64,000 nt of DNA from an archaeon (GTDB taxonomy: Archaea > Micrarchaeota > Micrarchaeia > Norongarragalinales > UBA97). Positions within the stretch are counted from its first letter, which is position 1, and every line of letters starts with the position of its first letter. The notes beneath the pieces are model-generated. The model had not been told where the DNA came from. It made no database searches and saw nothing but the letters and a program-made list of their open reading frames with translations. Positions 1,143 through 25,681 of the stretch are shown piece by piece. The stretch spans positions 1 through 64,000 of the forward strand of contig JAGVFW010000008.1 in NCBI GenBank assembly GCA_020057405.1, in the 5' to 3' direction. The position numbers and the translations under genes were made by a program.

Positions 1143-2282
1143 TTAGGGCTTGGGCGTCGGGCTTGCCTTTGGCGTTGCGGACGGGCTCGCTGCGGGTGTC
1201 GGGCTTGCCGTCGCGTTGGTCAGGGCGAACTTGTCGCACTTGTCGGGGTATGCCTTGCAGAGCTGGTCGGCCAATTGTTGTTCGGTGAGGGCGACGAAGG
1301 CGTACTTGCAGTCGGCAACAAAGATGGGCGCCGAACGCAGGCCGTAGGTGAGGGACCCTTCGGTAAAGTCGCGGTTGACGACTAAGCCATTCTTCTCGTC
1401 GCTAAGACACGTCGTGAATTTCGCCATGTCGGCAACGCCGATTGCCTTTGCAATCTCAAGGTATTTGGCGGTTGAGAGGTTAGCATTTGCCAAGTAGGCG
1501 GCTTGCGAAAACGCGTCGAACTTGCCCTGGTCGCGGGCGCACTCGGAGGCGATGGAGGCGTTCCACGCGTTAGGCCGGCTCTTTAGCGGTAAGTGACGCT
1601 GGGTGAACTCTATTGCGTTGCCGTGGGTTGCAACGTAGTTCTGCAGCTGCGGGTACATGGCCGCGCAGAATGGGCACTCGAAGTTAGTGAACTGGTAGAG
1701 GTTCACTTTACCGGCCGGCAGCTTGCACTCGGTTTCAAGCATGCGCTTGCGGTCGTAGACGAAGCCGAGCGCCTCGATGCGGAAGCCTTCGATGTTGCCG
1801 TCGAAAGCCTGGTTTTCCTGCTGCACGGATTTAAGCAGGACAGGGTCGCGGGAAGCTTCGGCCTTGCTGATGTAAAGCGCCGGAATTTCGTTAAAGCCGT
1901 CCTTTCGGTATTGGCCCATGTCTTTACTGCGGTCGGAAAGGGTGATTTGCAGGTTCTGGCTCGCCAGCTGGGCCTGCGCCGCGGCGATTTTCTCGACAAC
2001 GTCTTTGGTGAAGTTGTCGCTTGAGTCGTAGAAGAGCTTGAGCTTGACTGTCGGGGGAGTGAGGGCCTGCTCTACGAGGGAAAGGCGGTTTTCGATTGCG
2101 AGGAGCCGGTCTGAAACGTCGGTGTTGCCGGTAGTCGAGATGCGGTTGTTAAGCTGGTTTACCTGCACGACGAAGTAGGCCGCGAAGGCGAGTAGGAGCG
2201 CAAAAGCGATTGCAAAGCCGATAAACGCGGTCGTGCGGTCAAGAGTGTTGCCCAATTGCTTTTGTTCATCCATTTCTACCAT
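1143..2282 (-). CDS. Membrane-anchored DsbA/thioredoxin-4 family oxidoreductase
   Basis: N-terminal TM helix and coiled coil; FTNFECPFCA (CxxC); RHLPL; ASECARDQGKF; cis-Pro motif SAPIF; Pro/Ala/Ser/Thr tail. Confidence 0.9.
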   Translation of the reverse strand: MVEMDEQKQLGNTLDRTTAFIGFAIAFALLLAFAAYFVVQVNQLNNRISTTGNTDVSDRLLAIENRLSLVEQALTPPTVKLKLFYDSSDNFTKDVVEKIAAAQAQLASQNLQITLSDRSKDMGQYRKDGFNEIPALYISKAEASRDPVLLKSVQQENQAFDGNIEGFRIEALGFVYDRKRMLETECKLPAGKVNLYQFTNFECPFCAAMYPQLQNYVATHGNAIEFTQRHLPLKSRPNAWNASIASECARDQGKFDAFSQAAYLANANLSTAKYLEIAKAIGVADMAKFTTCLSDEKNGLVVNRDFTEGSLTYGLRSAPIFVADCKYAFVALTEQQLADQLCKAYPDKCDKFALTNATASPTPAASPSATPKASPTPKP

Positions 2283-2330
2283 CCCCAGCCATTAAAGTGA
2301 AAAAGCGTAATCCAACAATGCCGCAGAACG

Positions 2331-2394
2331 CATAAAAGGCTTTTCGTGAAACCGCGGGCCGATGTCATGAAACTGCGGGGCGATGGTTTTTAAG
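2331..2394. promoter_or_regulatory. Divergent promoter with a 21-bp tandem direct repeat
   Basis: TCGTGAAACCGCGGGCCGATG (2344-2364) and TCATGAAACTGCGGGGCGATG (2365-2385) match at 18/21. They are flanked by TATA-like TTTTTAAG (2387-2394, +) and TTTTATG (minus, 2331-2337). Confidence 0.55.
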
Positions 2395-2412
2395 CCCCAT
2401 TACTATATTCTA

Positions 2413-5400
2413 GTGGTTCAGATTTGGGAGGGGGAAGGGGCTATTTTCGACGCCATCCGCGAGAAGTGGGAAGACTTTCTTGATTGGAGCGATGAGAAGG
2501 GACTACCCGTCGCTTCAGCGGCCGACTGGCTGGAAAGCCACGGCGTGCCCAGCCTGCCCGTTTTCGCACTGATTTTGCTGATTCTACTGGCGGGCATCGC
2601 GTTTGTCGCATTCCCGCTTGTTTCGGGGCCCTCTACTGGCGACATCAAGGTAACGCTTGCCGACGCAAACGACAATCCCATCTCAGAGGCCACAGTGCGC
2701 ATTGCAAGCACGGGCGATTCTGCTTTTGCGGTAAAGACGCAGGCAACAGATGCTGACGGCGTAGTAATATTTACGGGCATTCCTGCTGGGCCGGTGAGCG
2801 TGCTTGCAACAGCCGACGGCTTTGCCGACGCTGAAGACCACATTGAAGTTGTCGGCGGCAAGCAGCAGGAAGTCCAGTTGTCCGCAACGGTTTCCATACC
2901 CAAGACGGTTTCCGTGAGCCTCGAAATCAGCGGGCCGACGGACCCCGACCAGATTTCAACCATCTTGTTTGACGAGAACTGGAACCCGATTACGGCGGAG
3001 CAGCACGGCGAAAAACCGACGTTTACAGTTGACGCCAACACCAACTTCCACGCGCGCATCACCGCGCCCGGCTTTAGCCAGCAAAGCATCTCCAACCAGG
3101 CAGTTACAGAAAGCGACAAGTTTTTGGGCAGCTTCCAGCTTAAGGCCGAGGACACGACCAAGAAAGGCACGGTACACGTTGTTGTCACTGACTTCGACGG
3201 CAAGGCAGTCAAGGGCGCTAGCGTTGTCGTAAGCGAGCGCGTTTCCGACGGCAACGGCAAGGAATTGTTTACCGGCAAAACTGGAGAGGACGGCTCGATA
3301 TCACCGCAAGACGCAGTGCTTGGCACCCTCATCACCGCGAAAGTCACTGCAGCCGGCTATTCTCCCAAAGTAAGCGACGCGGTGACTATCGTTGCGGAAA
3401 CGGCAATCACTATTGAGATACGCAGCTTAACCGGACCGCAGAAGCTCACCGTCAGCCTCGTCGATGGCGACGGCAAGCTCGTTGCAAACGGCCTTTTGCG
3501 CCTCTACGCGCGGCAGCCCGATGGTGCGATGGCAGTCGTTGACGAGAAAAAACCGTTTAAGGAAACAGTCGATTTTGAGCTAGAGCAGAACCGCGAGTAC
3601 GCCCTCTCGGCTTACGCGACGGGATTCTTGCCCCAGTTCTTCCAAAAGCTCGAGCCGGGCGGCAAGAGTATTACTTTAGTGCAGGCGACGCCGGCAAAGA
3701 GCGCGAGGCTGCGCGTGCACGTGAGCAACTTTGATTCCGCGGACGCCTCAGGTGCAAGTGTCGCACTCTTTAGCGCCGACAGGCTGCCGCTTGGGCTTTC
3801 GGAGAAAACCACGGGCCCCGACGGCGTCCAGTACTTTGACGACGTACCGCTCACAAAAGTCATTGCAATGGCCGCCTCGCAAGGCAGGTTCGGCGAATCG
3901 CCTGTCACTGTCTCAAGCGGAAACTCTTCGGTCGAAGTGCTTTTGCCAAGAGGCAACGGCAGGGTGCTGCTGACGGTAAAAGACAAGTTCTCGCTAAAGC
4001 CGGTCAAGGGCGCTGCAGTGCGCGTAAGCGCTTTTGAGGAACGCGCCTGCACTACCGACGACAAGGGCCAGTGCGCAGTTGAGGCGACCGAATTTGCCGG
4101 CGCACGCGCGATTGCCTCCGGTGCAGGTTACGAAACTCTATCTACCGCCCAGTTTGACGTCCGGCCCGGGGTGGACACGAAAGTCGAGGCGCTCTTGTTC
4201 CCCACTTCAGTCACCGCGAGCACCAAGCTTGAGTTCAACGGCTTTTACGACACTTCGGGCAACAAAGTGACTACGCTTTCGCCCGCTAGCGTCTACCGGG
4301 CGAAGTTCACTCTCCGCTCCCCGCCAATTGACTATAGCCAAGCGCGCGCTTTTGTTTCAGTTGGGGAGCTGACCGCAACTCTTGAAGGCTCGCCGGTCAC
4401 CATCACGGCCTACGACGCGGCCGGGGCGCAAAGGGTTTACACTGGCACCGACTTCCAGCTGGCCCGACAACTGAATTCGGCAGGCGACAACACGACTTTT
4501 GACGCAGCGGCTGCAGCAAGCGTGCCCAACGCCAAGGAATACAAGTGGGTGGACTTTGTTTTCGACAAGTTTTCCGGCGGGAGGGAAATTTCAGTCACAA
4601 TCACGACAAAAGCTTCGCCTTCCGCAAAGAGCGCACTAAACTACCGCACGGAATTCTACACTACGGACGGCGTGCTTAGAAGCCCTGCGGACGCCGAGGC
4701 GGGAAAAAGCAAGAGCGAACTGTTGGCCGCGACTGACTCGGCACCAATCGACTTGAGCTTCCAAGGCACCTGCCAGGATGACTTGTGCGTCCAGGCATTT
4801 CTTGAGACTCTCGACGGGACTCGGGCGCAGACGGGATTCCAGACTCCGCTCGGCCGCGAGTTCTACCTCAAGTTCAAGGCCGCTTCATTCGGCACGCCCT
4901 TTGAGGCGCAACTGCTGACGAGCGGAGTTGCAGTCGGGCTCTTGCGCGGCACGAGTGGCGGGGCCGAGACGAGCCCCAAGCCCGCCCCTGACGGCACACT
5001 CGCAGTCAGGATGCCGGCCTCGGGCGGGGAAGGCACGTTTACCTTGCGCGGCCAGCGCGTTTCAAGCGATGCCTACGTCAAGCTCACGCTTTACCGCGGC
5101 GATGCAGTTGCTTTTGAGAAAACGCTGTTTCTGCGCGTGAATGCTGAGGGAACGCCGACACTGTCTATTATTGCAAACCCGCGAACGCTTGTCGCACTTG
5201 CGGCAACGCCGGTTGTAATCACAGTCCGCGACTCTCTTGGCGTACCCGTCACGGGGGCGCGCGTCTCCCTCGGCGGGGTTGGGAATGATGCGCTTGGCCG
5301 CATTGACGAGGCGACTGAAGACGTCACTCTACCAGGCACTTACCGCATTGAAAGCGTGACTGCCGAGAGCGCAGGCGTAATAGCGTATGCAGTTGACGCG

Positions 5401-8400
5401 GCGGGCTTTGCAATCGCGCGGGGCACCATTTCCGTAAACGCGCACAACCTCATCTCCGTTGGCGAGACGAGCTTGGCTGTCGAAGTGACTGCCAAGGGGC
5501 AGGAGACGCGTACGCCGATTACGGTCACCAACCTTCTTGACAATGAAATCAGCGTCTCGCTTTCGGTAACGCGCGATGGCATTCCCAATTTGCTCGACAT
5601 TGGCGCGGAGCCTTCGCAGGCGGCAAGAATGCCCTCACGGGGCGTCCTAAACGCCTATCTTAGGGCCGCAATTGCGGATTACGTGCTTGGCTTGGCGGCG
5701 CAGGGCGACACGATTAAGGACAGTATTAGCGGCCGCGTGCGCGTCATCGGCAAGTTAGGTGCGGTGAGGCAGGCAGTTGAAGTGCCATTCACGGCCAAGG
5801 CAACTTTAGTGCGGACTGCAATTTCTGACGCGTGGGGCATTGACGCAAGCGCCCTTAACATCGAGCTCTCGCCCCCCGATGTTGCAGAAAAGACGGTCGA
5901 GGTGCAAGTGCGCAACACCGGCCCGCACCCGCTTTTAATCAACCAGCAGGTAAACGGGCTCAAGGGCGTCTTTGTTAACCCGCCATCACAGCAAGTGAGC
6001 CCCGGCGCTACTACGGCGATGCAGATACTCGCACGCGTTTCGGGCGCTTCTTCATCAAACCAATGCGTCTTTGACGCGACAACGACTAAAGGGACAATCC
6101 GCTTTTTCGCAACATTCCAGGGCATCTCAAGCAACAAGGACCTCCCCGTCACCCTATCCCTTACTGCAAAAGGCGTGTGCCGGCCGACCGCAGAGCAACT
6201 GCTGACCATGCCCATTGCAACTCGTTTTGAATTGCCCGCAGATGCCAAGGTGCGCAAGAATGATGACGGCAGCACCACAGTCCAGATGTCCGACGGCAGG
6301 CGAGTGCGCTTTTCTGCCGGAGCGACGGTGGCGACAACCGCGGTTACCGTGCCCCCTGAAACAGAATTCTACGCCGAGGGCACTGCGGCGACAACTGCAA
6401 CTGACGGCTTCAAGTTCACCCCGCCAGTTGGCCTTATTCTAGTACTCCCAGCCGGCGTGCCGGTTATTTCAAGAGGCGATTCAAGCGCGGCCATCATCGG
6501 AACCACTCAAGTACTCTTCCCCTCAACACTCGCGTTCTCACAGGATGCCGGCGGCAGGGCGGTGCGCGTGCCACCGGGAACTATCGTGCAGATAACGGCA
6601 TTGCCGCAAGTGAGCCTCGAGTCGAACACGCTTGCAATCTTGCCCGCAAAGATAGTGTTCGACTTTAGCCGAAACGCCATTGTCCGCGAAAACGACGACG
6701 GTTCGTTCTCAGTCGAGTCTGCTGGCAATGCAATTGGCTTTAGCGCGCAATCACAGCACGCGCCCCAAGGGTCCGACGGCAGCGTGCAAGTCACTGTCCC
6801 TTCGGGCACCGGCGTGCTCTTCCCGACGGCGGTCTTTAGCGGCAGGGCAAACAATGGCTTTGAACTCCGCGTGCCCGCCTCACTCTCGATTGAAATTCCG
6901 TCCGACGTTGAAGTCGCAACTCGCGGCACGACAATTGCTGCATTCCTCCCCGACTATGACCTGCTGCTTCCTGCTGGAACGACTTTCAAGGCAAGCGCCG
7001 GCGGAAAGACTGCAGCTGTCGGGCCAAACGCAATTGTTTCATTCAAGTCAGTCACAGGCATTTCATTGACCGGCAACGCGTTTGCAAACCTGCCATTTGC
7101 CTTGAGGCTCGTGCTCCCAGGCGGGGCGCGCCTTGACGGTAGCGAAGTCGGAAAAACTGCGACCCTAGCATCGGGAGAGACAATCGGATTGCCACCGGAT
7201 GCAACAGTAAGCGACGCCCAGCTTGACGGCACGCGCGTTACCACAGTGCCACCCTACTCACAAGTGTCGCTTCCAAAAAGTTTCTTCACTCCCGTTACCG
7301 GCGGCGGGTTCAACCTGAAGCCAGCCGTTCCCTATGCCCTTGGATTCCCTATCGGGACACGGCAAGTCGAGGCAGGCAACGACCTGCTAATGCTTTTGCC
7401 AGACTATGACTTGCGCGTGCCAAAGAACACGCGCCTTGCCCCCGACTCAGGCCTCCTCTTCACCACTCAGATGGCGGCAGGCACGCAAACGCGCGCCGCT
7501 CCCGCGCCCGAAATTTCAGTTGCCGACTTGGGCCGCGTAACTCTCCCATTTGACTTGACTGCCACGCTTCCCGCGGCCGCGCGGGTCAACGAGCGAAGCG
7601 ACGGCATTGCAGTGCTCGTGCGCGACGGGCTGACGATCGGCTTTTCCGCACCTGCCGAGCTTTCGCACGACAACGGTTCGACAATAAACGCGCCGGCTGG
7701 TGCCGCAGTGCTTCTTCCGGCCTACTTGATTGAATCAACTCCTGACGGCAGCCTGAGGCTCACGCTGCCGATTGACGTTTCGCTGTCGTTTGACACTGGC
7801 GTGCAGCTCCAGCGCGGGCCTGCAGGCAACTCGTTTGTCTCCGACGACTACAAGCTTGACGCGGGTAGCGCAACGCGGGTTGACGTGAGTAAGGCGGGCG
7901 TGCTGCGCGCAATAGTCCCCGCCGGAACCGCGCTCACGCTAACCTCAACTGCAAACGCGATTGCCGCAGGCGACGAAGTCTCGATTCCCGCGCAACTGTC
8001 CCTGCAGTTGCCGGTTGATGCCATCGTGCGGGCTCGGGCCGACGGCAGGCTCTACGTCGAGGCCAGGGGAATGCGCGCGCTCTTTGGCGCCGGCGCAACT
8101 GCCGATGCCGGAAAAATAACTGTGCCTGAAAACACTCAAGTGATTTTCTCGCGCGGCATTGTCGGCCAACTCCGCAACGCTGGCCTTGCGCAAGGCCGCG
8201 ACTTCAAGCTCACCATCCCGATTGCCTACGCACTCGCATTTCCTGCAGGTGCGGGGGCGCCCGTTGCGACAAAGCGCGGCACAACCGCAATTGCATTCCG
8301 CGGCCTCGTAATTGAGTTCCCGCCAACAGCGCAATCTTCCTCAGGCGATTCGGGCACGCTAGTGTCAATGACGGGCGGCAGTGCGACCAACTTCATCACT

Positions 8401-11400
8401 TGGATAAACGGCATTCCCGCATCCGAACTTGGCGGGATAATCGACGCGGCTGATGCGGCCTTAACGCCACGCGAGCGACTCGCCCTTGCTGCAAAGGACA
8501 ACATTGCAGTGACCCTGCCGTTCCAGCTCGAGCTGCTCGTGCCCCCGTCGTTCTCAATGACAACTGCGGATGACACGGGCTCTGGGCCCGCAGTGTGGCT
8601 CTCAAGCCGGGTTGCAATAGCCTTCGGGCCAACCTCGCAAGTTGCAGGCAGCGTGCCAAAGACAATAACCGCCCCCGCAGGCACCCAGCTCTCGCTTCCC
8701 GCATCTATGCTTTCACGCTCGCCCGACGGCGGCTACGCAATCACGATTCCATTCTCAACCGCGGTTCTCATCCCGGAGGACACCGAAGTAGTCAACGACA
8801 AGCAGACTTACGCACTGCTTTCAAACGCGCGCCAAGAGCTCGCCCTCCCAGCAGGCACGGCATTTATTCAAGTGCAGGACTTGCTTCGCGCCGACCTGCA
8901 GCCAAACACGCGCATTGAAGTCAACCCAATTGGCGCCGCGCAGCTTGACGGCCTGGTGCCCGTGCGCCTGCCCGTTGATGCGGAGCTACTGTTTGCAAGC
9001 GGCGTTCGCGCATTCACTAGCGGTGCGAGCACGGTCGTGCGCCTGCCTGACGGCTCAACCGCACAATTCCCGGGAACAATTGACGCACAAACTGGCCCCG
9101 GCGGAGTGCGGGTGCTGCAGTGGACTGGCGGCACTGCGGCCATGCTGCCGCGGGCGGCAGTGACTTCGGACGCTAATGGCGGCACGCAATTCTCGCTTCC
9201 CATCGCGGCAAACGTCATCCTTCCCCCGGACGCACGAGTGGTGCAACGAAGCGGCCTCGTCGCAGTGCTTGCGGCGCAGCGCGCGCAAATTACTCTTCCG
9301 ACTAGCGCCAAGCCTGCCTCAGACAAGCGTGGCTTTATCGCAAGCGTGCCCGCAGGCGGCAGGATTTCAGTGAGCACGTTTGGCCTCGACGTGATTGGAC
9401 AGCCCATTGTCGTGCCATTTGAGATGCACGTGAACGTGCCCGCAGACGCGATTGTTGACGAGAACGCCCCCGGCGGGGTTGTCGTTGAATTCTCGGCCAA
9501 CAGCCGCGCGAAATTCTCTGGCGGCGTGTTTACCTCACCAACCGGCCTTGGCACTGGCGCCAGCCTCTATGGCCTGCAGTACGGCAACGGGTTCTTCGGC
9601 TCGCAGCTAAGCCCATACGGGGCTGGATGGCAGCAAAACCAAAACCAGTTCGCGCAGCAAGTGCGGCTCAACTTGCTAACCGTGCCGGCGTTCTCGCAAG
9701 TTACGCTCGCCCCGAGCTTAATGCGGCCGCTTGGCTACTCGCAGGGCGGCCTTGCGGGTGCAAGCGCCTATGAGTTCTCGCTCCCCGTGATGTGGACCGC
9801 AATTCCGCAAAGCACTGGCGCGATTTACAACAACCCCGACAGAAGCTACAGCATTTTCGTGCAAAACAACGAGATAGTCTTTCCCGCGGGAACCCAGTCA
9901 AGTCCCTTGTCGCAATTTGGAGGCGGGTTGGGAGCGCAGCAGCTTATAGTCCCGGCTTTTGCGCCGGTTCGAGTACTCCCAGTCTTTAACGGCGCGTCTC
10001 CGTTTGAGCGGCGGCCGCTGCCCTTTGAGATGGCGATGCAACTACCCCAAGGCGCACGCGTGCTGCCGAGGGGGCAGGATGGCACGCGCACGATTGACTT
10101 TGGCGGCGGCAGGCGCATGGTGCTTGACCGCGACCTCTTCGTCGACGAACGCAGTGTAAGCGGCCCGACGCCACCGCAGCTAAGTGAATTGGTAATCACG
10201 CAAGGGACGCTAGTTGGCTTCTCCCCCGGCATTTACCGCCCGCTCCCGCCCCAGTTTGCAAACCCGATGGAAACTGCAAGCCTGCCGCAAAACTTGTGGG
10301 GCTTTGCACTCCAGTTGCCTGCCGCGATAAAGATTCGCGTTCCGTCTGACACGCGCTTTGCCAAGAATGCCGACGGGTCGCAAAGCGCTTTTGTGCAAAA
10401 CTTTGAAATCCGCGTACCCGCAGGCACGAGCCAACCGCTAACGGAGAACGGCCAGAATGGCGTGCGCACTCTTGCAGTAGCGCCAAACGCGCAAGTTTTG
10501 GTCGTGCCCCTTGCGCTCTCTGACTCTTTCGAGCGAATCGAGCTCGCAGTGCCATTTGACGTGACGTTTGCCCTCTCGGCCGACGCGCGCGTGCTGCCAA
10601 AAGCAGCGGACGGCAGCTGGGCGATTGAGGTGCCCGGACGCGGCTCGATTGCGTTTAGGCCAGAGTCCGAGCTTGCTGCCAACAAAGTGAATGTCCCTGC
10701 AGGCAGCGGCTTCTTTGCGTCGCGCGAACTGGCGAAGGCGGACAAGAGCGTCGACGAATTTGGCACGCGCGCAACCGCATTCACGTTCACCGCGCCAATG
10801 TCAATGTCGATTAAGAGCGATACCCAACCTCAGGGAACGGGTGCAAGCCGCTCGCTCACTAGCGGCACTGTTGAACTAGTGCTGCCGGCGGGTGTGCAGT
10901 CAAGCAAGCTGGGCAACGCTTACGTAACGATAGTTTCCGCCGGCTCGCAACTCGTGCTTCGGCCGATTGACGCGAGCTTCGGGCAAAACCTGCAGGACAT
11001 TTTCCTCCCAGGCGAGGCAGCGTTTAGCCTGCCCACCGACGCCAAGGCGTTCGGGACATCGCCTGCCGGCGAAATGCCAGTCAAGTTCGCCAGCGGCCAA
11101 GGCATTGTCTTTAAGGGCGGCTCGCGCGTTGAAGGCGATGGCGCTACCAGAAAAGTCATTGTACCAAACGGCGCGTCGTTGGCGCCATCTTATGCGCTCC
11201 TAAAGACTGCAAGCACTACGGTCCGACAGCAAATTCAGCGCACTCAAACAGTGCCGCAGGGCTGGCGCTTTGCAACCCCCTCGCAACTGACGGTTACATT
11301 GCCCGCTGCAACGCGCGTCGAGACCGGCGACAACGGCTTTTTAGTGCAGGGCCAGTACGAGTCGTACTTGCTGCCTAGAAACGCCCAGCAGTCGCTTGGC

Positions 11401-17919: not shown

Positions 17920-18535
17920 GCCTAGAAAAACAAACAGCTGGCCGCTCGTCGCCGTCCTAGCGATTGCCGCGATAGCAATTGCAGTAGGCTACCTCGCGTT
18001 CCAGGCGCCGGGAACAAACCCGGTAAAACAGGTGCTCAACCCAAAGAGCCCGCTTGAGAAGGCAGGCGCGGTTTTCGAGCAACAGTACGGAAAAGACTTT
18101 GCCACCTACTCCGACCCTGACTACGGGTTTTCACTCAAGTATCCCCTTGGCTACAAGATTGACAAGGGCTTTACCGACGACGCGAGGGTAATAGTCTATG
18201 CAGTATCGGCCGAAGGCGCACCCGAAACATTTACGGTCGGAGTGGACAACGCCTCAGTCGGACAAAACGAGTTTGACGGAATCGTGCAGCTATACGACCC
18301 GCAGTACGTCGAGTCGGCAACGCAAACGACGATAAACTCGGCAAACGCCTACATCCTCAGCGTAGTCGGGCCAGACGAGTACACCAACTCCAACTCGACA
18401 ATGCACCAGGCTTTCGTAAGCTGCAAGCGTGACGACGGCTTGACCTACACCGCCATCCTCACCGCAATGGTGCCACGAGAACTGGGCGCCAACGTTCCAC
18501 TAATGGACTACATGATTTCCTCCTTCAGGTGCTAG
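17909..18535 (+). CDS. Membrane-anchored PsbP/Mog1/DcrB-like protein
   Basis: N-terminal TM helix; FATYSDPDYGFSLKYPLGY; TTINSANAY; ends MISSFRC, which is typical of the PsbP-like fold. Overlaps the giant-gene stop. Confidence 0.7.
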   Translation: MAAKPRKTNSWPLVAVLAIAAIAIAVGYLAFQAPGTNPVKQVLNPKSPLEKAGAVFEQQYGKDFATYSDPDYGFSLKYPLGYKIDKGFTDDARVIVYAVSAEGAPETFTVGVDNASVGQNEFDGIVQLYDPQYVESATQTTINSANAYILSVVGPDEYTNSNSTMHQAFVSCKRDDGLTYTAILTAMVPRELGANVPLMDYMISSFRC

Positions 18536-18852
18536 AATTGATTTGGGTAAAGGTGCACGAGCGCAGTTTCAAAGGACAGACGCGCACGGTCATCGCAGCC
18601 TGCGACGCCAGGCTCCTTGGCAAAGTGCTTAAGGGGAGAAACGGCGTTGTGCTCAACCTCAAGCTCCACCGCGCATTCTACGAGGGCGAGAAGGTAAACG
18701 GCATGGAGCTTGCCGAGATACTCAAAGGTGCGATTAACGTCAATCTAGTCGGCGACGAGACTATCGCCGCCGCGTCAAAAGCTTTGCCCGTGAAGAAAGA
18801 GTACGCGAAAAAGATTGCAGGCGTGCCACACTTACAGTTCTACCGGATTTAG
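18529..18852 (+). CDS. DUF424 family protein
   Basis: VKVH, VIAACDARLLGK, FYEGE, VNLVG, IAGVPHLQ. Confidence 0.9.
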   Translation: MLELIWVKVHERSFKGQTRTVIAACDARLLGKVLKGRNGVVLNLKLHRAFYEGEKVNGMELAEILKGAINVNLVGDETIAAASKALPVKKEYAKKIAGVPHLQFYRI

Positions 18853-19005: not shown

Positions 19006-19284
19006 CTATTCAGGCAGGATTGGCGGCCGCTCGTCGGTGATGAAGGAGTAGTACGCCCCGAACTTGTACTGGTAGTCTAGCACGCGGCGCAGAAAACTGC
19101 TTACGCGCGCGGAGCGCATGCCGCGGATGAGCACGGAGCCGAAGTTAAGAATCCAGCCGAGGAACGAAAGGACGCTTAGGATGTAGAGCACGAGGACTAC
19201 GGGAATCCAGTAGACCAGGCGCACGAGAAGTTCGAAGCGCGAGGCTTTTTGCGGCGATTTTACCGAAGTCTGGATGGTTTTCAT
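19006..19284 (-). CDS. DUF4389-type small membrane protein (paralog 1)
   Basis: SRFELLVRLVY...LIRGMR...YYSFITDERPP. Confidence 0.8.
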   Translation of the reverse strand: MKTIQTSVKSPQKASRFELLVRLVYWIPVVLVLYILSVLSFLGWILNFGSVLIRGMRSARVSSFLRRVLDYQYKFGAYYSFITDERPPILPE

Positions 19285-19575
19285 TTACCCGCTCTCGGGA
19301 ATGATTGGGGGCCGCTCGTCGGTTGTGCCAAACGCGTAGGCCGAGCTCTTGAAGAGATAGTCAAAAGCCAGGTTGAGGAAGGCGGATACGCGAACGCTGC
19401 GGCGGCCGCGGATTAGGATTGAGCCCCAGTTGAGCAGCCAGCCGAGTCCCGAGAGGAGCATGAGGATGTAGGTGACTATTGCAAGCGGAATCGTGTAAAC
19501 CAATCGCACGAGCAGTTCGAAGCGCGAGGCCTCGGGGGCGGAATTGACTGAAGTCCGGATAGTTTGCATGGGCAA
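19285..19575 (-). CDS. DUF4389-type small membrane protein (paralog 2)
   Basis: SRFELLVRLVY...LIRGRR...YAFGTTDERPP; GGTGA SD upstream; abuts paralog 1. Confidence 0.8.
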   Translation of the reverse strand: MPMQTIRTSVNSAPEASRFELLVRLVYTIPLAIVTYILMLLSGLGWLLNWGSILIRGRRSVRVSAFLNLAFDYLFKSSAYAFGTTDERPPIIPESG

Positions 19576-19630: not shown

Positions 19631-20110
19631 GTGGTGGACAGGCGCATTCTCTACAGCATCGCCGCTTTTGTGGCAACCGCCGGCCTTTACCTCGCAATAA
19701 CCGCCTCGGGCGCGTCGCTTCCGCAAGTGCCGTCACTCTACTACTATGGCTTGGAAGACTGGGGCAACGGCAAGGCAGTGAGCCTGGCGGGCGTCGTGCT
19801 CGCCTATCTTTTCGTCTCAGTGGCGGCACTGCTTTTCTTCGGCCACGCGGCGCCCCTTGCGATGGCAATGGAGGGGTTGAAATACGCCTCGGCGTACAGC
19901 CACGCGAGCGTGCACCCCTACGATTTTCTCTTCGTCATCCCGCAGTTCATCGCAGTCTACGCGGGCCTGAGGTTGAGTGCGAACGCCGAGGCCGACTTTG
20001 ACCACAGGGGAACGGTGTTCAAGCAATGGCAGTTTCCGCTTTTACTCTACGTCGCCGGCGCGGCTTTGGCCCTAGTGCTTTACCTCGTGCGGCCGCCGTT
20101 TGTCAGCTGA
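19631..20110 (+). CDS. Multi-pass membrane protein
   Basis: About 4-5 hydrophobic segments; TATA-like TTTTTAAA upstream. Confidence 0.75.
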   Translation: MVDRRILYSIAAFVATAGLYLAITASGASLPQVPSLYYYGLEDWGNGKAVSLAGVVLAYLFVSVAALLFFGHAAPLAMAMEGLKYASAYSHASVHPYDFLFVIPQFIAVYAGLRLSANAEADFDHRGTVFKQWQFPLLLYVAGAALALVLYLVRPPFVS

Positions 20111-20186: not shown

Positions 20187-20771
20187 ATGCTGCCTGTCGC
20201 GGCCGTCATGCCGCTTTCAATACTTGGCGACTTTAGCGACACGCTGGGCGAGCTTGGGTTCGTCATTCGGCTGATGGCTTTTGTCTACATCTTGTTCTGG
20301 CTCTTTGCGACGTTTCAGGACAACCAAATTGTTTTTGGCTTCACCTCGCTCATTGCTGCTTACTTCGTCATTTTCTACGCGTCCGTGATAGTCGTTTTGG
20401 CGGTGGTCGTTTTACTCATGGTGAACGGGATGTTCATACAGCAGTCGCTCATGTTCGGACTCTTTCCGACATTGGGCAGGGACCAGCACGGTAGCCCCAT
20501 CGATTACGGCATGCAAATGGAGGAGATGAAGAAACAGGAACTCCACGCGCAACTTAACGCCGGAAGGCAGGTAAGCGAGCAGGACATGCAATTCCTCGCG
20601 CAAGCGCAACAGAGACAAGAAATAGCCCAGCAGCAAGTGACTCAGGCAATGCAGAGCATGGGACAACCGAGCAGCCAGCCGCAAGGCGGCTTCGGGTTTG
20701 CCCAGCCGCAAACAAGCCAGCTTTCGGACAGCCTATCAAGCCAGCAAGTTGGAATGAGGAGAATGAGGTGA
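20187..20771 (+). CDS. Membrane protein with Gln/Met-rich C-terminal tail
   Basis: Three hydrophobic helices, then QAQQRQEIAQQQVTQAMQSMGQPSSQPQGG; TTTTTAAA promoter at ~20157. Confidence 0.8.
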   Translation: MLPVAAVMPLSILGDFSDTLGELGFVIRLMAFVYILFWLFATFQDNQIVFGFTSLIAAYFVIFYASVIVVLAVVVLLMVNGMFIQQSLMFGLFPTLGRDQHGSPIDYGMQMEEMKKQELHAQLNAGRQVSEQDMQFLAQAQQRQEIAQQQVTQAMQSMGQPSSQPQGGFGFAQPQTSQLSDSLSSQQVGMRRMR

Positions 20772-20775: not shown

Positions 20776-21054
20776 ATGAGTTTCTTTGAGGACTTTTTCT
20801 TCATGCTGGACTTGGCCAAGTGGTTTCTCATGCTATATATGGCCTACTGGCTCTACACGTGGGCACGCGACAAGCTAGTCTTTGCCCCAACTATCGGCCT
20901 CATCGTCGCCGGCATCCTAATCTATTTTCTCGTAATCGAGCACCCGTTTATCGGCGCGCTAGGCATTTTTGGCTGGATGATGATTACTGGCGGGCTGATG
21001 TACGTCATCGGCACTTTCGCACCCGGACTCTACATGTTCATGCATCGGAGGTAA
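20776..21054 (+). CDS. Small membrane protein
   Basis: 92 aa, about 3 TM segments; GAGGTGA SD; operonic spacing. Confidence 0.8.
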   Translation: MSFFEDFFFMLDLAKWFLMLYMAYWLYTWARDKLVFAPTIGLIVAGILIYFLVIEHPFIGALGIFGWMMITGGLMYVIGTFAPGLYMFMHRR

Positions 21055-21059
21055 AACAA

Positions 21060-21437
21060 ATGAAACAACGCATACACCACTTCCTCGCTGCCTACAAGCA
21101 GACGCACTTTAACAGGGCGTTTTGGGTGAGCCCCAAGTGGAGGCTCTTCGTCGTGCTTTTAGTCATTGCGACGATGTTTTTGGTCCAGGACTACCTGACC
21201 GGCAAGTACTTGGCCGAATTCAAGGAGAGCCCCCTTGCGTTTGAGGCACTCGACAAGGTCATGTACTGGTTCGGCGTCGGCATCGTCGTTGGCGCGGCGG
21301 CACTCTTCCTCATGTTTGAAGGCGAGTTCGCAATTGGCATGTGGAATCACTTGAGGCGCGCCGAGCAGGCTGCACTGAAGGAATTTGCGGGCCTGCCGGC
21401 AGGCAAGAGAAAAGTGCGGCGCAAGAAGAAGCGCTAG
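21060..21437 (+). CDS. Two-TM membrane protein with basic C-terminus
   Basis: ATG 21060 after GGAGGT SD (the track ORF is over-extended to 20820); LMFEGEF motif; ends KRKVRRKKKR. Confidence 0.8.
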   Translation: MKQRIHHFLAAYKQTHFNRAFWVSPKWRLFVVLLVIATMFLVQDYLTGKYLAEFKESPLAFEALDKVMYWFGVGIVVGAAALFLMFEGEFAIGMWNHLRRAEQAALKEFAGLPAGKRKVRRKKKR

Positions 21438-21549: not shown

Positions 21550-21855
21550 TTAAACGCCAAGAATAATGGCGATGAGGCCGAAGATGATTACCGCGCCAAA
21601 GCCGATGGTGAACCACTCGGTGAGCTTGGTGAAGTAGGCGAAGAACAAAAGCGCCGCTAGGGCGCCGAAAAGCGGACCCGCTGAAGCCAGCGGAATCAAG
21701 ATGTTCTCAACTGGCCACAATTGTATTTGACCAACGCCGTTAACGAACCAGTGCCCCGAATAGCTATCCGCCTGGCCAGTGAAAATGAGCAGCGTGACCA
21801 ATATGAATACGAAGAATACCCACTCTTCAGCCGGCAAGTCCAGGAATAAAGCCAT
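21550..21855 (-). CDS. Small membrane protein
   Basis: About 101 aa with 3 hydrophobic segments. Confidence 0.7.
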   Translation of the reverse strand: MALFLDLPAEEWVFFVFILVTLLIFTGQADSYSGHWFVNGVGQIQLWPVENILIPLASAGPLFGALAALLFFAYFTKLTEWFTIGFGAVIIFGLIAIILGV

Positions 21856-21963
21856 AAAACACACCCTTACAACTACTTTATAGTAGTTACAAGTATTTAA
21901 GGTTTGGTGCTTTAAAAGCGGGTAGCGGAGGATATTTAAGCGGCGGGCGGATTAGTTAGCTGC

Positions 21964-22191
21964 ATGAGCGAGTTTTTCGACGCGCTTGGGGTAATCGTCC
22001 TCATACTTGATTTCGTCATGCTCTACAGGCTCTTTTACCCCGCAGTGGTAAGCAGCAACTTCATCGCACTCATGCTCACTACGCTTGTCGCCTTCCTCCT
22101 CCTAGTTCCCTACCCGTGGCTCGCCTGGGTGATGTTCGCGGCGCTCTTCATGCAAGGGTTTTTCGCACAGTTGTCGGAGCACCAGTGGTAA
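21964..22191 (+). CDS. Small membrane protein
   Basis: 75 aa, almost entirely hydrophobic; TATA-like ATTTAAG upstream. Confidence 0.75.
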   Translation: MSEFFDALGVIVLILDFVMLYRLFYPAVVSSNFIALMLTTLVAFLLLVPYPWLAWVMFAALFMQGFFAQLSEHQW

Positions 22192-22192
22192 G

Positions 22193-22480
22193 ATGGACTT
22201 CACTTTCCTTTTCCTCATTATCCTCATGCTGATGGCCTACCAGTCGGGCTTGGGCTTAATTGCCGCGGGCCTGTTCGTCGTAACGCTCGTGATGGCTAAA
22301 AACAAGTTCCTCATGGCTGCAGCTGCGGTCGGGGGGCTGGCCTTGGGCGCGCTCTTCCTCGGGTTTGGCGAGGAAAGTACGCTTATTATTGGCGGGGCGC
22401 TGTTCCTAGTGTTCATTCTTTTGGCTTGGAAGGACGACCAACCCGGCGGACAGCCGGGATATCCGGGAATGGGTTATTAG
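22193..22480 (+). CDS. Small membrane protein
   Basis: 95 aa, about 4 short TM helices, tail PGGQPGYPGMGY; 1-nt gap to the previous gene. Confidence 0.75.
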   Translation: MDFTFLFLIILMLMAYQSGLGLIAAGLFVVTLVMAKNKFLMAAAAVGGLALGALFLGFGEESTLIIGGALFLVFILLAWKDDQPGGQPGYPGMGY

Positions 22481-22487
22481 TGATAAA

Positions 22488-22799
22488 ATGAACTTTTTGC
22501 TCGCCGCACTGCTTTTCTTCCTCACCTGGTGGTTTGCAGACCAGGGGCTATATTTCTTCTCAATGCTCTTCATCATCGTCCTCGTCATGGTGGCGATTGC
22601 CGAGGGCAACAAGCCCCCCACTACCAAGGTGATGATGCAAGTAAACGCACACCCGGCGGCCTCGCCGGCAATCGCGCCTCACCCGGAGTGGAATGACGAC
22701 AGGATTGAGAAGTTCGGGCGCGGGCTGGCAAACGTAATTCTAGTGCCGTTGAAAATCTTGTGGAAGCTCCTCAACTACGCGTGGGGAAACAGGAAATAA
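22488..22799 (+). CDS. Small membrane protein
   Basis: N-terminal hydrophobic hairpin, Pro-rich linker, amphipathic C-terminal helix. Confidence 0.7.
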   Translation: MNFLLAALLFFLTWWFADQGLYFFSMLFIIVLVMVAIAEGNKPPTTKVMMQVNAHPAASPAIAPHPEWNDDRIEKFGRGLANVILVPLKILWKLLNYAWGNRK

Positions 22800-22801
22800 A
22801 A

Positions 22802-23131
22802 TCAGTTTTTGAGCCGCAAGAGAATGTCGCGGTTTGTTTCCAGAATCTTCTTGTTTGTTTCTTGTAGGGCCTTTAGCAGGGCGAGGGCCTCGTTTAGCTT
22901 GTCGCCAATGTCTCCCGACGGTCCCGAGGCTTGGGAGGGCAGGGGCTTTGAAAACAGGCTGTCGGGTGCTTGTGGGGATGCCGGGGGCGCCATGGGCTTT
23001 AAAGTCTCGGTCGCCTTGCGAAAGACTTCCTCTGGGTTGCCGACGCCAAGCTGGCGAAGGTTTTCGAGAACTTCTGCCTCAGCCATGCCGGACTTGAGCA
23101 TGTCGCGGATGGCGGCGTTCAAGTCAGCCAA
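22802..23131 (-). CDS. Hypothetical protein (helical N-domain, Pro linker, C-terminal coiled coil)
   Basis: Likely TTG start MADLNAAIRDMLKSG; C-terminus LNEALALLKALQETNKKILETNR. Confidence 0.7.
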   Translation of the reverse strand: MADLNAAIRDMLKSGMAEAEVLENLRQLGVGNPEEVFRKATETLKPMAPPASPQAPDSLFSKPLPSQASGPSGDIGDKLNEALALLKALQETNKKILETNRDILLRLKN

Positions 23132-23192
23132 ACAAGTGCACCGGCAATCATTACTGCGCAAGGCTTTTTATGCCTAGTGACGTAAGCAAATC

Positions 23193-24692
23193 GTGGAACT
23201 TGATTTCCCGTTCGGCCCGTGGAAGCGCGTGGTCTTTGGCAACTGGGGAGAATACCCTACGGGCATCTACTCGAATCCCGACAGGCTCATCCTCTTGGCC
23301 GTCTTTGAGCGCGACGAGGCGGGAGTAAAGGGAGTACTTACCATGCTTGCAAAGGCCTTTGTCACCGACGCGGACCTAAGCAAGGCAGCCCGCGCGCAAA
23401 AGCGGGAAGTGACGATTATCGAGAAGCACAGCGTGGAGTCCAGCCGACGGTACGCCATCGTGAGCACTGCGCCCATCTACTCGCCTTACTCGCAAAAGGC
23501 CATAGTTGATGCCATCAACAGGCAGGCGGGAGAAGTAAAGGTGATTGCAAAGTCGGTTGAGGAGCTTGCGGAGGCTTACGGCAGCAAGGCAAAGGACCTG
23601 GCAGTAGCTTCTGACGAGGAGGCAAACGCGCTTTTGGGCGATCCGTTTCTCATCATGGCACTCGTTAACCCACGGGCGCCGCCGACGAAGGAAAGCTTAA
23701 GCACCACGGTAGTGCACGTTGGCGCAAGCGGGGCCGGAGAGCCAGTGTCGGTGCCCCTGCAGTCGCTGGCAACGGCAGTCGTCGCCGGGGGCAGCCGCGA
23801 GCAGCGCTTGGCTGCAGTGCAGGTGCTGTGCGAAGACGCCCTTGCAAACAGCGTGCCCGTCGTCATCATCGATTCGAGCAATTCTTTTGCGGGCCTGGCA
23901 TCGCCAAACCGCCTCACGCGCGACTTTACGAAATTCAAGATGACTGCGATGCCCCTGGGTTTTCCCTACCGCGACTACCGGCTTGGCAGTGGCTTTTACG
24001 TCGACTTGGCGGGGCTTGACGCAAAGACGTTCACAAAATGCTTGGGCTTGTCGCAAACGAGCCCGGGGGACGCGATTGAGGCAGCGTGGAGGCCCGACGC
24101 ACACGCTATCTCGGATTTGATTGAGCAAATTGAGGCGCACGGCACTGCAAGCAAGGAACCCTCGGCGGCTTATGATGCGGCTAAGGCCAAGCGCGCCATC
24201 CGAGTTGCGGAAAAGACGCTGCAGGGCATTTTCGCCAAGTTCGTCGAAGGAGAACTGCTCGCGCCGTGGCAGGAAGGCATTGGCAGGGCTTTCCACCTTG
24301 ACGCGTCCGGCTACGGGGACGCGGGCCAGAACCTCGCAATCGCCTCTCTTCTTAACGCAGTTAAGCCGCCGAAAGGAAAGCGGCTGCGCGCCGTTGTTGC
24401 CTTTGAGGCCGACTTGGCAGTAGTGCAGGACGAAGTGCTTGAGCTGATTAACTCGATGAGGGGCAACGGGCTTGGCTTCATTTTGCACGCCGAGCACGAA
24501 CTGGACGCCCAGCTCATTCCCAACGCCGAGCTAAAGCTTGAGCTAATCAAGAACGAGATTGTCGCAACAGTGGTTGGTCAAAAACCCGCCCGCTTTTTCT
24601 TAAGGCCCACTTACACCGATGCGCCTTACGCGCGGCAAGAGCCCCAGCCACAGATTGCAAGGCGACCCGCCCCCACTCAAACCACCGGCTGA
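23193..24692 (+). CDS. HerA/VirB4-like (DUF87/DUF853-type) P-loop protein with degenerate Walker A
   Basis: VHVG...VSVPL...AVVAGGSREQR occupies the GxxGxGKS position; EDALANSVPVVIIDSSNSFAGLASPN; GLGFIL; C-terminal RFFLRPT. Confidence 0.7.
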   Translation: MELDFPFGPWKRVVFGNWGEYPTGIYSNPDRLILLAVFERDEAGVKGVLTMLAKAFVTDADLSKAARAQKREVTIIEKHSVESSRRYAIVSTAPIYSPYSQKAIVDAINRQAGEVKVIAKSVEELAEAYGSKAKDLAVASDEEANALLGDPFLIMALVNPRAPPTKESLSTTVVHVGASGAGEPVSVPLQSLATAVVAGGSREQRLAAVQVLCEDALANSVPVVIIDSSNSFAGLASPNRLTRDFTKFKMTAMPLGFPYRDYRLGSGFYVDLAGLDAKTFTKCLGLSQTSPGDAIEAAWRPDAHAISDLIEQIEAHGTASKEPSAAYDAAKAKRAIRVAEKTLQGIFAKFVEGELLAPWQEGIGRAFHLDASGYGDAGQNLAIASLLNAVKPPKGKRLRAVVAFEADLAVVQDEVLELINSMRGNGLGFILHAEHELDAQLIPNAELKLELIKNEIVATVVGQKPARFFLRPTYTDAPYARQEPQPQIARRPAPTQTTG

Positions 24693-24697
24693 GCACA

Positions 24698-25234
24698 ATG
24701 GCCAAGGTACTTTCCGAAAAGCAGGTGTTCAAAGGCACTGTTTTTGCGGTAAAGGAACTGCAGGCCGAGCTGCCGAACGGCAAGCGCATGAAATTCAACG
24801 TCGTAGAGAAGAACGACTCTGCGATGATTGTCCCAATCACCGACGACGGACAGCTAGTGCTGCAAAAAGAGTACTTCGTTGCCAGCGATGTCTACATGCT
24901 CAGCCTGCCGAAGGGAGCGATGGCCGACGGGGAACACCGCCTTGACGCGGCTAACCGCGAACTCCAGGAAGAGGCGGGCTACAAGGCGGGAGAACTCATT
25001 GAACTGGGCACACTTACCGTCTCGCCCGGCTACATACGGCAGAAGACGCACGTCTTCCTCGCCAGAAAGCTCACCGAAAGCAGACTTTCCGGCGACGAGG
25101 ACGAGGAAATTGAAGTCAAGAGAATCCCGTTTGCCGACTTCGAGAAGCTAGTCTACAGCCACGAAATCAGCGAAGCGCGCGTGATTGCCGCGCTCTTCCT
25201 TGCAAAGAAATACTTGGAAACAAACAAGAAATAG
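24698..25234 (+). CDS. Nudix hydrolase (NudE/NudF-like ADP-compound hydrolase)
   Basis: Nudix box LPKGAMADGEHRLDAANRELQEEAGY; SPGY; GDEDEEIEV. Confidence 0.93.
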   Translation: MAKVLSEKQVFKGTVFAVKELQAELPNGKRMKFNVVEKNDSAMIVPITDDGQLVLQKEYFVASDVYMLSLPKGAMADGEHRLDAANRELQEEAGYKAGELIELGTLTVSPGYIRQKTHVFLARKLTESRLSGDEDEEIEVKRIPFADFEKLVYSHEISEARVIAALFLAKKYLETNKK

Positions 25235-25237
25235 GAA

Positions 25238-25681
25238 TTAGATTCGCTTGAATAAGCCGGAAGCACCGCCCCCCGCGCCCCTTTGGGCCGGAGGCTTTTC
25301 GTCGGATTCCTTCTTGGCGGCCTTTAGCGCACCCAGTTTTTCCTCGAGCAAGTCGCGCACTTGAGTGATGGTGGCGTAATCTAGGGGGTTTATCGTGTCG
25401 AGAACGTAGCGCAGCTCGCGGAGCTCTTGTTTTGTGGCAAACTTCTTCTCCAAATCTTCCTGCGAGGCAGTTGAGGGACGGTTGCCGGAACTTGGGGAAA
25501 AACCGCCCGACGCGGCCTGCTCTTCTAGCTTCTTGAGCCTGCCGTTTAGCGCAATCATCGTGCGGCCGATGACTTCCTCGTTCTTCTCCATCGTGCGCAG
25601 CTTCTGGGCGATTAAGCCCAGCTTGGAGTCGAGGCTGCGCAGGTCGGCCATCACACTCTCGATAACTTCAGCTTTTGCCAT
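25238..25681 (-). CDS. Coiled-coil hypothetical protein
   Basis: GAGGT SD before ATG 25681; heptad pattern LRSLDSKLGLIAQKLRTMEKNEE...LNGRLKKLE. Confidence 0.75.
   Translation of the reverse strand: MAKAEVIESVMADLRSLDSKLGLIAQKLRTMEKNEEVIGRTMIALNGRLKKLEEQAASGGFSPSSGNRPSTASQEDLEKKFATKQELRELRYVLDTINPLDYATITQVRDLLEEKLGALKAAKKESDEKPPAQRGAGGGASGLFKRI

Follow-up and report, generated by a model that had tools for sequence, protein, structure and literature searches.

The 64,000-nucleotide (nt) window analyzed here comprises positions 1 to 64,000 of contig JAGVFW010000008.1 (GenBank assembly GCA_020057405.1), an archaeal sequence of the order Norongarragalinales (Micrarchaeota); its genome, referred to as G000, has a size of 1.22 Mb in 17 contigs, of which the window is contig C2. 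The window carries a stretch of envelope genes whose order, taken from the list of open reading frames (ORFs) and from Pfam and NCBIfam matches, is fibrillarin (plus strand), a DsbA-like gene (minus), a giant surface protein gene (plus), a PsbP-like gene (plus), DUF424, two DUF4389 genes (minus), the small membrane protein genes tm159, tm194, tm92, tm125, tm104 (minus), tm75, tm95 and tm103, the helical protein gene cc119 (minus), herA499, a Nudix gene, the second helical protein gene cc152 (minus), and the genes for a family B DNA polymerase (PolB) and a methionine aminopeptidase (MetAP). An initial annotation, made from the sequence alone, had interpreted this stretch as one host-contact conduit related to the Ced/Ted DNA-transfer systems and type IV secretion systems (T4SS). 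All the envelope genes that it listed are present as ORFs with matching translations at about the positions assigned to them, and its interpretation as a whole is partly supported. About 12 of these genes form a block that is present in nearly every sampled genome of the Iainarchaeota and Norongarragalinales, and the arrangement recurs in dozens of genomes, far beyond chance.

The genome samples are subsets of each group, in which related genomes are not independent. For Norongarragalinales, 41 genomes were searched, yielding 20 loci of 10 kb to either side of herA499 and 36 loci found through tm92; the phylum sample of Micrarchaeota contains 151 genomes (18 of the same order, counting G000, and 133 of other orders), and the Iainarchaeota sample consists of 101 genomes from the phylum of an Iainarchaeum record, with 20 loci inspected. 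Across the 36 tm92 loci, a scan that favours closer relatives, the order reads giant gene, PsbP-like gene, DUF424, tm159, tm194, tm92, tm125, tm75, tm95, optionally tm103, cc119 on the minus strand, herA499, cc152 on the minus strand, PolB and MetAP. Where at least 8 kb of downstream sequence was available, herA499 and cc119 were present in 16 of 21 loci, and where at least 6 kb lay upstream, a PsbP-like gene was found in 10 of 20 and a match to the giant gene in nine. Starting from herA499, the triad tm194-tm92-tm125 occurs within 10 kb in 10/20 loci, usually together with tm159, tm75 and tm95. Orthologs of herA499 were identified in 38 of the 41 Norongarragalinales genomes (the raw tally of 40 includes local P-loop matches in G003 and G025), and its 17 matches in the phylum sample all fall within the order (17/18 counting G000), with 0/133 in other orders. 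The most conserved small subunit, tm92, is found in 39/41 Norongarragalinales genomes, one copy each, and in the phylum sample in 18/18 genomes of the order, with two weak matches (E 0.002 and 0.005) among the 133 genomes of other orders; herA499 and tm92 share one unusual distribution. In Iainarchaeota, a herA499 homologue occurs in 99 of 101 genomes. All 20 inspected loci there contain the pair cc119 (minus) and herA499 (plus), and all 20 show matches to hidden Markov models (HMMs) of the transmembrane (TM) protein families directly upstream, despite 20-30% identity, while PolB is present in 16 and a giant ORF upstream in 14. On one Iainarchaeum contig, a giant-like ORF is found together with TM genes (a tm92 relative among them), cc119 (minus), herA499, PolB and MetAP. 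The components grouped by the initial annotation are syntenic and co-occur across both lineages.

The gene herA499 (23193..24692, plus strand) encodes a protein of 499 amino acids (aa) with a HerA/VirB4 fold in which neither a functional Walker A nor a functional Walker B motif is left. Sequence searches of Pfam, NCBIfam and the PDB returned no match for it, and the fold was recognized from an AlphaFold model built with 24 homologs (predicted local distance difference test, pLDDT, 84.1), for which Foldseek returned HerA, VirB4, DndH-C and TrwB at E-values down to 2e-9. VIA-align comparisons of residues 170-490 scored 20.9 against HerA (4d2i_B), 20.4 against DndH-C (7es4), 20.3 against a second HerA structure (7wrw) and 19.6 against VirB4 (4ag5_A). 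At the level of the modelled fold, herA499 belongs to the FtsK-HerA superfamily, with a RecA-like core of the additional strand catalytic glutamate (ASCE) type and HerA/VirB4/TrwB topology. The N-domain (aa 1-160) is beta-rich and is left uncovered by the HerA alignments, which start at about model residue 169; only the R388 TrwK/VirB4 alignments span it (residues 16-490, 353-368 residues aligned, root-mean-square deviation, rmsd, of about 15), and the ESM Atlas contained no match to this domain. The Walker A site reads GGSREQRL, where an intact DUF87 domain encoded elsewhere in the same genome, at the end of a second giant ORF on contig C17, has GGTGSGKS in the alignment; hhalign relates the herA499 family to that domain with a probability of 83% (E 9e-6). 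The Pfam DUF87 model (PF01935) gave no hmmscan match to herA499, and a whole-genome search with it found four other loci instead.

The loss of the nucleotide-binding motifs extends to the entire family. A herA499 profile searched against 1.84 billion representatives retrieved 249 at E <= 0.001 and 174 at E <= 1e-30, and the best 150 are all stand-alone proteins of approximately 450-530 aa, the longest having 685. Among 156 aligned members, a canonical Walker A (G-x4-G-K-[ST]) is present at the P-loop site in none: the Lys position is occupied by Arg in 128 and by Lys in 1, and the Ser/Thr position holds Ser or Thr in 8, being mostly Leu, Lys or Ile. Walker B, expected as hhhhDE, is degenerate in the window's protein (VVAFEAD); across the 156 members, its Asp position is Glu in 45, Pro in 26 and Asp in 24, and its Glu position is Glu in just 33. 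Judged from these alignments, herA499 cannot be a motor because the canonical Walker A is absent in 156/156 members, and the predicted loss of ATP binding is as old as the family itself. Both fold and motifs agree with the initial description of this gene as a dead HerA/VirB4-like ATPase. Lower-scoring representatives bear the names Candidatus Diapherotrites and Candidatus Iainarchaeum, all annotated as hypothetical, and herA499 would have been catalytically dead since before the split of the two lineages. A HerA/VirB4-like gene in a DPANN genome is not always a secretion motor. As a separate observation, the P-loop columns of the herA499 profile also match, besides the C17 ORF of G000, giant ORFs of 2,500-12,000 aa in six genomes (G011, G014, G019, G023, G027 and G031).

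Ten small membrane ORFs were counted in the region, namely the two DUF4389 genes and tm159, tm194, tm92, tm125, tm104, tm75, tm95 and tm103, each with 1-4 TM segments according to a crude hydropathy scan, from which all TM counts are taken; the small membrane proteins of the initial annotation were thus found, and its figures of about eight proteins with two to five segments were not. The start codons of several of these genes were inferred from alignments. With about four TM segments, tm159 (19631..20110, plus strand) is usually the first gene of the TM cluster and in most loci precedes tm194; genomes of family f9 keep one copy of it, which stands alone. The first gene of the triad, tm194 (20187..20771, plus), combines approximately three TM segments with a Gln-rich helical tail of about 100 aa and is contiguous with tm92 and tm125 in 35/36 loci found with tm92, as well as in all other inspected loci holding tm92 except L044, in which no tm92 ORF was selected. 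The second, tm92 (20776..21054, plus), has two to three TM segments and the motifs W..Y.W...HL.FSP and ...LVIEHP. The third, tm125 (21060..21437, plus), has two TM segments, basic N- and C-termini and a conserved EGE motif (E87, G88, E89); alignment with relatives places its real start at about 21060, and the listed ORF (20820-21437) begins too early. Further downstream, the two-TM hairpin tm75 (21964..22191, plus) is paired with tm95 (22193..22480, plus), which has about three TM segments and a Gly/Pro/Tyr-rich tail and whose HMM also finds tm95 in Iainarchaeota loci. This pair remains intact where it is parted from the triad (L039, L040 and the f9 genomes). Conservation is weak for tm103 (22488..22799, plus), a cluster member with one TM segment and a tail of about 60 aa; at its position, Iainarchaeota have ORFs of 115-135 aa with 2-3 TM segments. 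According to hhalign, tm92 and tm75 may be distant paralogs (probability 69%, E 4e-5), and no relation was detected between tm194 and tm159. Apart from DUF4389, Pfam and NCBIfam scans of the small proteins yielded nothing usable, and the ESM Atlas contained only unnamed archaeal clusters for tm92. Taken with the profile searches of the PDB, these scans matched the small proteins to none of the known unrelated transporters to which, as the initial annotation had considered, they might have mapped; with the synteny described above, neither of the refuting conditions that it had named applies. A further search for homologous proteins in the region led only to seven close unnamed relatives.

The two coiled-coil proteins of the initial annotation were found as two helical proteins, and the coiled-coil label finds weak matches among the relatives of one of them. 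The soluble cc119 (22802-23161, minus strand) is divergent from herA499. Its alignment shows a small helical domain at the N-terminus, followed by a variable linker rich in Pro and by a C-terminal helix that is conserved. In 13/20 Norongarragalinales loci and in all 20 Iainarchaeota loci, cc119 and herA499 are direct neighbours in this divergent arrangement. A plus-strand ORF at 22809-23177 was ruled out as a real gene, the conserved one being the minus-strand cc119. The coiled-coil-like cc152 (25238-25696, minus) is convergent with herA499 and divergent from PolB, has 20 invariant columns in its alignment, and follows herA499 in 16/20 Iainarchaeota loci. Its relatives show just weak matches to generic coiled-coil families, including DivIVA, DivIC and FlaC-type proteins, and its profile found nothing below E 0.026 in the PDB; Pfam and NCBIfam scans of cc119 and cc152 gave nothing usable. 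Between herA499 and cc152, one locus (L013:13167-15860, genome G011) encodes a protein of 897 aa whose NlpC/P60 and SLT lytic-transglycosylase domains are murein-hydrolase domains in an archaeon.

The giant surface protein is encoded at 2383-17919 on the plus strand and, as initially annotated, is anchored and contains cysteines; its length is 5,178 aa, not 5,170. A short N-terminus, conserved and cytoplasmic, precedes one TM anchor at aa 50-85 and a very large ectodomain, in which CarboxypepD_reg (aa 88-166, E 1.6e-15) is the sole Pfam match above the cut-off in the protein and BLASTP detected no internal repeats. Its 34 cysteines are spaced such that neighbours in sequence order lie 5-57 residues apart. 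Only 3 N-x-S/T sequons are present, compared to 27.8 +/- 4.7 in 1000 shuffles, 0 of which had three or fewer, and this count suggests a strong avoidance of N-glycosylation sites. The first 1000 aa of the protein match in 41/41 Norongarragalinales genomes, with 1-8 matches per genome. A second giant ORF of at least 3,430 aa lies outside the window on contig C17 of the same genome (C17:141418-151710, minus strand, locus L033) and is cut off by the end of the contig; MG2-like and filamin-like matches lie in its huge ectodomain, and a TM helix is followed at the end by a cytoplasmic DUF87/HerA domain whose Walker A and Walker B motifs are both intact. By its domain matches, this ORF would combine a giant surface protein and a HerA-type ATPase in one fusion.

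Directly at the end of the giant gene, the PsbP-like gene (ORF 17876-18535, plus strand) has a probable ATG at 17900 and overlaps the giant ORF by 20 nt, in agreement with the overlapping PsbP/DcrB-like gene reported initially. Its match to Pfam PsbP_2 (PF18933) is weak (16.9 bits, E 0.0066, below the gathering cut-off of 27 bits). In Foldseek searches with its structural model (pLDDT 77.8), the best match is cyanobacterial PsbP (2xb3, E 2.3e-6, TM-score 0.70 on the target), and 36 matches at E <= 0.001 include plant PsbP, DcrB, Tsi3, LpqN and EagT6. As modelled, the protein has the PsbP/Mog1/DcrB fold, in which helices enclose an antiparallel beta-sheet. A location outside the cell is probable because it carries an N-terminal TM anchor and two cysteines, Cys 183 and Cys 219, that are invariant in the family alignment. 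The family was detected in 39/41 Norongarragalinales genomes, as a single copy in 37 and with a second weak match in G036 and G039, and outside the order its profile gave just weak matches in 6/133 genomes of other Micrarchaeota orders. In all 25 genomes with both genes on one contig, the PsbP-like gene is co-oriented with and downstream of the giant ortholog, at an estimated gap of at most 200 nt in 17 of them. The link between the two genes is firm in these counts, and they strongly support the PsbP-like protein as a predicted obligate downstream partner of the giant gene. In G036, a PsbP-like match lies inside a 3,470-aa open frame (G036:C8:100579-110967), which suggests an in-frame fusion or a read-through with the giant ORF.

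On the other side of the giant gene, and divergent from it as initially noted, lies the gene of a DsbA-like, membrane-anchored thiol-disulfide oxidoreductase of 379 aa (1143-2282, minus strand). It matches Thioredoxin_4 (52 bits, cut-off 23.2, E 1.2e-13) and DSBA (27.5 bits, cut-off 25.6, E 3.2e-6), and its translation contains one N-terminal TM segment at aa 14-44 and a CPFC active-site motif, so that with a thioredoxin fold and a CxxC motif it is a predicted oxidoreductase. The family is multi-copy, with three matches in G000, and a DsbA-like gene adjoins the giant gene in G000, G001 and G002 only, all of the window's own family. Since it stands next to the giant gene in just these three genomes, DsbA was ruled out as a core member of the block.

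Three observations argue for a functional relation among the TM genes, cc119, herA499 and cc152 and for a coupling of the block to giant surface proteins: gene order is deeply conserved, the distribution is shared, and the parts are retained where they have been dispersed. A reading that we regard as quite possible, if short of probable, is that the block encodes an undescribed envelope assembly, a static scaffold tied to giant surface proteins and without a working translocation motor. The region would then represent one copy of a conserved block that dates back to the Iainarchaeota/Micrarchaeota stem, in which six or seven small integral membrane proteins (tm159, tm194-tm92-tm125, tm75-tm95 and tm103) would form a membrane platform. 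On its cytoplasmic face, herA499 would have kept the ring-forming HerA/VirB4 fold after its P-loop was lost family-wide, and cc119 and cc152 would serve as adaptors. The assembly, genetically coupled to the giant N-terminally anchored surface protein, may dock, organise or anchor such proteins at the membrane as a static scaffold or gate, with energy, if needed, coming from elsewhere. In Norongarragalinales, the giant protein would have its own extracytoplasmic PsbP-fold partner, and in the window's family also a DsbA-like oxidase for its 34 cysteines. The data show the folds, the dead motifs, the gene order and the distribution; from these we infer the physical association of the parts, the formation of a ring and the link to giant-protein biogenesis. 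DPANN archaea are rich in giant surface proteins and in membrane proteins that are lineage-specific, and for work on the biogenesis and roles of both the block offers a concrete, bounded target. If its parts work together, they would represent a new use of a translocase fold as a static scaffold.

The same comparative data show a block that splits into modules, namely the giant and PsbP-like genes, tm194-tm92-tm125, tm75-tm95, and cc119/herA499/cc152, and several features of this modularity weigh against the scaffold reading. In three lineages (family f9, genus g17 and genus g28, together 9/20 herA499 loci), herA499 is no longer linked to the TM genes, and co-transcription is therefore not required. 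In f9, f11 and g17, a long distance separates the giant gene from the TM genes. The psbP-like HMM gave no match in the 20 Iainarchaeota loci, unrelated genes (phosphoglucomutase, deoxyhypusine synthase, tRNA-splicing endonuclease, a HAD hydrolase and a SLOG protein) are interleaved in relatives, and the housekeeping genes PolB, MetAP and DUF424 lie inside the conserved block. With PolB and MetAP among its members, gene order alone is no proof of one machine, and the conserved order may be a frozen stretch of the core genome. HerA-family proteins, moreover, usually act on DNA, and herA499 is located two genes from PolB.

These points would be accommodated by independent modules in a frozen synteny block, a neighbourhood of historical rather than functional origin, which is a doubtful explanation but one to be taken seriously. 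The giant and PsbP-like proteins would then be an adhesin or surface module, the small TM proteins an unrelated channel or transporter, and herA499, cc119 and cc152 a DNA- or division-associated pseudo-ATPase complex that could serve chromosome segregation, cytokinesis or, next to PolB, the replisome as an accessory. Consistent with this, the parts separate without loss in f9, g17 and g28. In f9, the triad lies among phosphoglucomutase, deoxyhypusine synthase and tRNA-splicing endonuclease genes, tm75-tm95-cc119 are found together elsewhere, tm159 and herA499 are each alone, and every part is still single copy in 5/5 genomes searched; in g17, cc119-herA499-cc152 stay together, away from the TM genes and from PolB (L019 and L029). 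PolB and MetAP keep the same conserved order in both lineages, the closest folds of herA499 (HerA, DndH and FtsK) are DNA translocases, the near-universal single copy (99/101 and 38-40/41) fits a core cellular role, and the weak DivIVA, DivIC and FlaC-type matches of the cc152 relatives point the same way. However, cc119 goes with tm75-tm95 and not with herA499 in f9 and g28, and this ties the soluble and membrane modules to each other. The TM genes directly upstream of cc119/herA499 in 20/20 Iainarchaeota loci, at such low identity, and the shared distribution of herA499 and tm92 are likewise difficult to reconcile with a purely historical neighbourhood, and no DNA-binding domain was detected in the Pfam scan.

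The initial annotation had favoured a Ced/Ted/T4SS-like conduit or host-attachment machine, in which the small proteins would be VirB2/VirB3/CedA1-like, herA499 a VirB4-like base and the giant protein a contact spike; energy could be supplied by another ATPase, such as a TraG/VirB4-type protein or the DUF87-fused giants elsewhere in the genome. Some observations are in line with this view: the order of the genes is conserved, the hairpin proteins tm92 and tm75 resemble distant paralogs, the only alignments that reach the herA499 N-domain are those of R388 TrwK/VirB4 (at the high rmsd given above), and active HerA/TraG-type ATPases are present elsewhere in G000. Even so, the conduit is improbable and this part of the initial interpretation is not supported. 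A usable Walker A is found in 0/156 family members, and profiles of tm92, tm194, tm159 and tm125 searched against PDB sequences found nothing below E 0.09 (tm75, tm95 and tm103 were not among the queries), with no VirB2-, CedA1- or TedC-like protein recognised by these sequence profiles. A VirB6/CedA-like protein with at least five TM segments is likewise absent from the conserved cluster, whose largest small protein has about four by the hydropathy scan. In addition, the modules are dispersed, DsbA adjoins the giant gene only in the window's own family, PolB and MetAP are part of the block, and a TraG-P-loop ATPase is encoded beside polytopic membrane proteins on another contig of G000.

The distribution of the block also bears on a role in host contact. 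Norongarragalinales and Iainarchaeota are proposed to be weakly host-dependent or free-living in PMC12892359 (2025), which also credits some other orders with reduced dependence, making the correlation with the block a loose one. A host-contact role is weakened because the block occurs in exactly the two lineages that this paper proposes as the least host-dependent and in 0/133 genomes of other orders, a pattern that argues against the conduit. On the same source, the block is a candidate marker for the transition to host dependence. Returning to the static scaffold, its most elaborate form is unlikely as it stands: an ancient envelope machine of the Iainarchaeota/Micrarchaeota stem in which an inactive HerA/VirB4-type ring would be docked via two helical adaptors onto small hairpin membrane proteins, two of them distant paralogs, would install or anchor multi-thousand-residue surface proteins, and would have been lost in the strongly host-dependent Micrarchaeota orders. 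If true, it could explain the installation of proteins of 2,000-5,000 residues and would constitute a new class of pseudo-ATPase-based surface-assembly apparatus. A literature search at the level of titles and abstracts, with subscription journals and supplements outside its scope, returned no description of the block, and in two Micrarchaeota papers the words HerA, VirB4, giant, secretion and DUF87 do not occur.

A domesticated or integrated mobile element or provirus, which would have supplied PolB, a HerA/FtsK-type protein resembling packaging ATPases and the small membrane proteins, is scarcely credible and was rejected: the block is universal, nearly all genomes of two lineages have a single copy of it in the same place on the chromosome, and the base composition of the region is the same as in the rest of the window. 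Furthermore, PolB has the full length of a family B polymerase and has MetAP behind it, and neither the ORF list nor the Pfam scans of the window revealed an integrase, a capsid or repeat boundaries.

Among the remaining features of the window, the first gene of the order, fibrillarin, occupies positions 389-1063 on the plus strand, and the full-length PolB gene followed by MetAP was placed after cc152 by Pfam. The genes are tightly packed: operon-like intergenic gaps of 1-7 nt separate tm194/tm92/tm125, tm75/tm95/tm103, tm103/cc119 and herA499/Nudix/cc152. DUF424 (18529-18852), DUF4389 and Nudix genes interrupt the envelope genes, as initially annotated and confirmed by family matches. DUF424 lies 3' of the PsbP-like gene, with a 7-nt overlap in the window, and this position is kept in many Norongarragalinales loci. 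The two tandem DUF4389 genes (19006..19575, minus strand; Pfam E 4e-14 and 5e-11) are a recent insertion outside the conserved block: HMM matches to them were found in only one other Norongarragalinales locus, from a same-genus genome (L046), and in a single Iainarchaeota locus (L112). A three-TM insert, tm104 (21550..21864, minus), occurs only within the window's own family, with HMM matches in L046 and 100-aa minus-strand ORFs at the same position in L025 and L030. Between herA499 and cc152, a NudE-like Nudix hydrolase gene (24698-25234; NCBIfam NF008736, E 7e-50, score at the cut-off) has no match in the relatives' loci by phmmer and HMM scans, where other genes fill its position. The ORF p145 (25675-26112) was excluded from the block, having no family match and a position that is not kept in relatives. 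Elsewhere in G000, at approximately 88-96 kb of C17 (L082:4192-12348), a 792-aa TraG-P-loop/AAA_10/DUF87 ATPase comes after two membrane proteins, one of 585 aa with about four TM segments and a polytopic one of 317 aa, and next to these is a 566-aa DUF87 protein with a REase domain; this cluster is a candidate active T4SS/Ced-like or defence module.

Among known systems, the hexameric HerA translocases of Sulfolobus (4d2i) and Deinococcus (7wrw) differ from the herA499 family in that the latter lacks the Walker A Lys and Ser/Thr and has a degenerate Walker B. Pfam DUF87 misses herA499, the HerA alignments leave its N-domain uncovered, so a HAS-barrel match was not seen, and NurA, Mre11 or Rad50 neighbours were not seen beside it in the Pfam scan of the window. 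Archaeal DNA import by Ced and Ted employs CedA, CedA1, CedA2 and CedB, and TedC, respectively, and T4SS combine VirB4/TrwK with VirB3 and VirB2. Compared to these, the ATPase motifs of herA499 are dead, the tm92, tm194, tm159 and tm125 profiles are without similarity to solved pilins or other T4SS parts, and the block has no polytopic CedA/VirB6-like protein, a separate TraG-type ATPase and polytopic proteins being located elsewhere in G000. Naturally degenerate ATPase domains are known from EssC/EccC of type VII secretion (PDB 4lya, 5fv0 and 4nh0). These score with herA499 far below HerA and VirB4; herA499 is instead a single domain with no TM segment and no active partner domain in cis, and WXG/LXG-like genes were not recognised in the Pfam scan of the window. 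The PsbP-like protein shares the PsbP/Mog1/DcrB/Eag (DUF1795) fold with CyanoP (2xb3), DcrB (6e8a) and the Eag chaperones EagT6 (6xrf) and SciW (6xrb), at Foldseek E-values of 2.3e-6 to 6.6e-3. Eag chaperones are cytoplasmic, whereas the PsbP-like protein is membrane-anchored by prediction, carries two invariant cysteines and matches Pfam PsbP_2 below the cut-off; the likeness to these chaperones is that the PsbP-like gene, too, is paired genetically with one very large partner protein.

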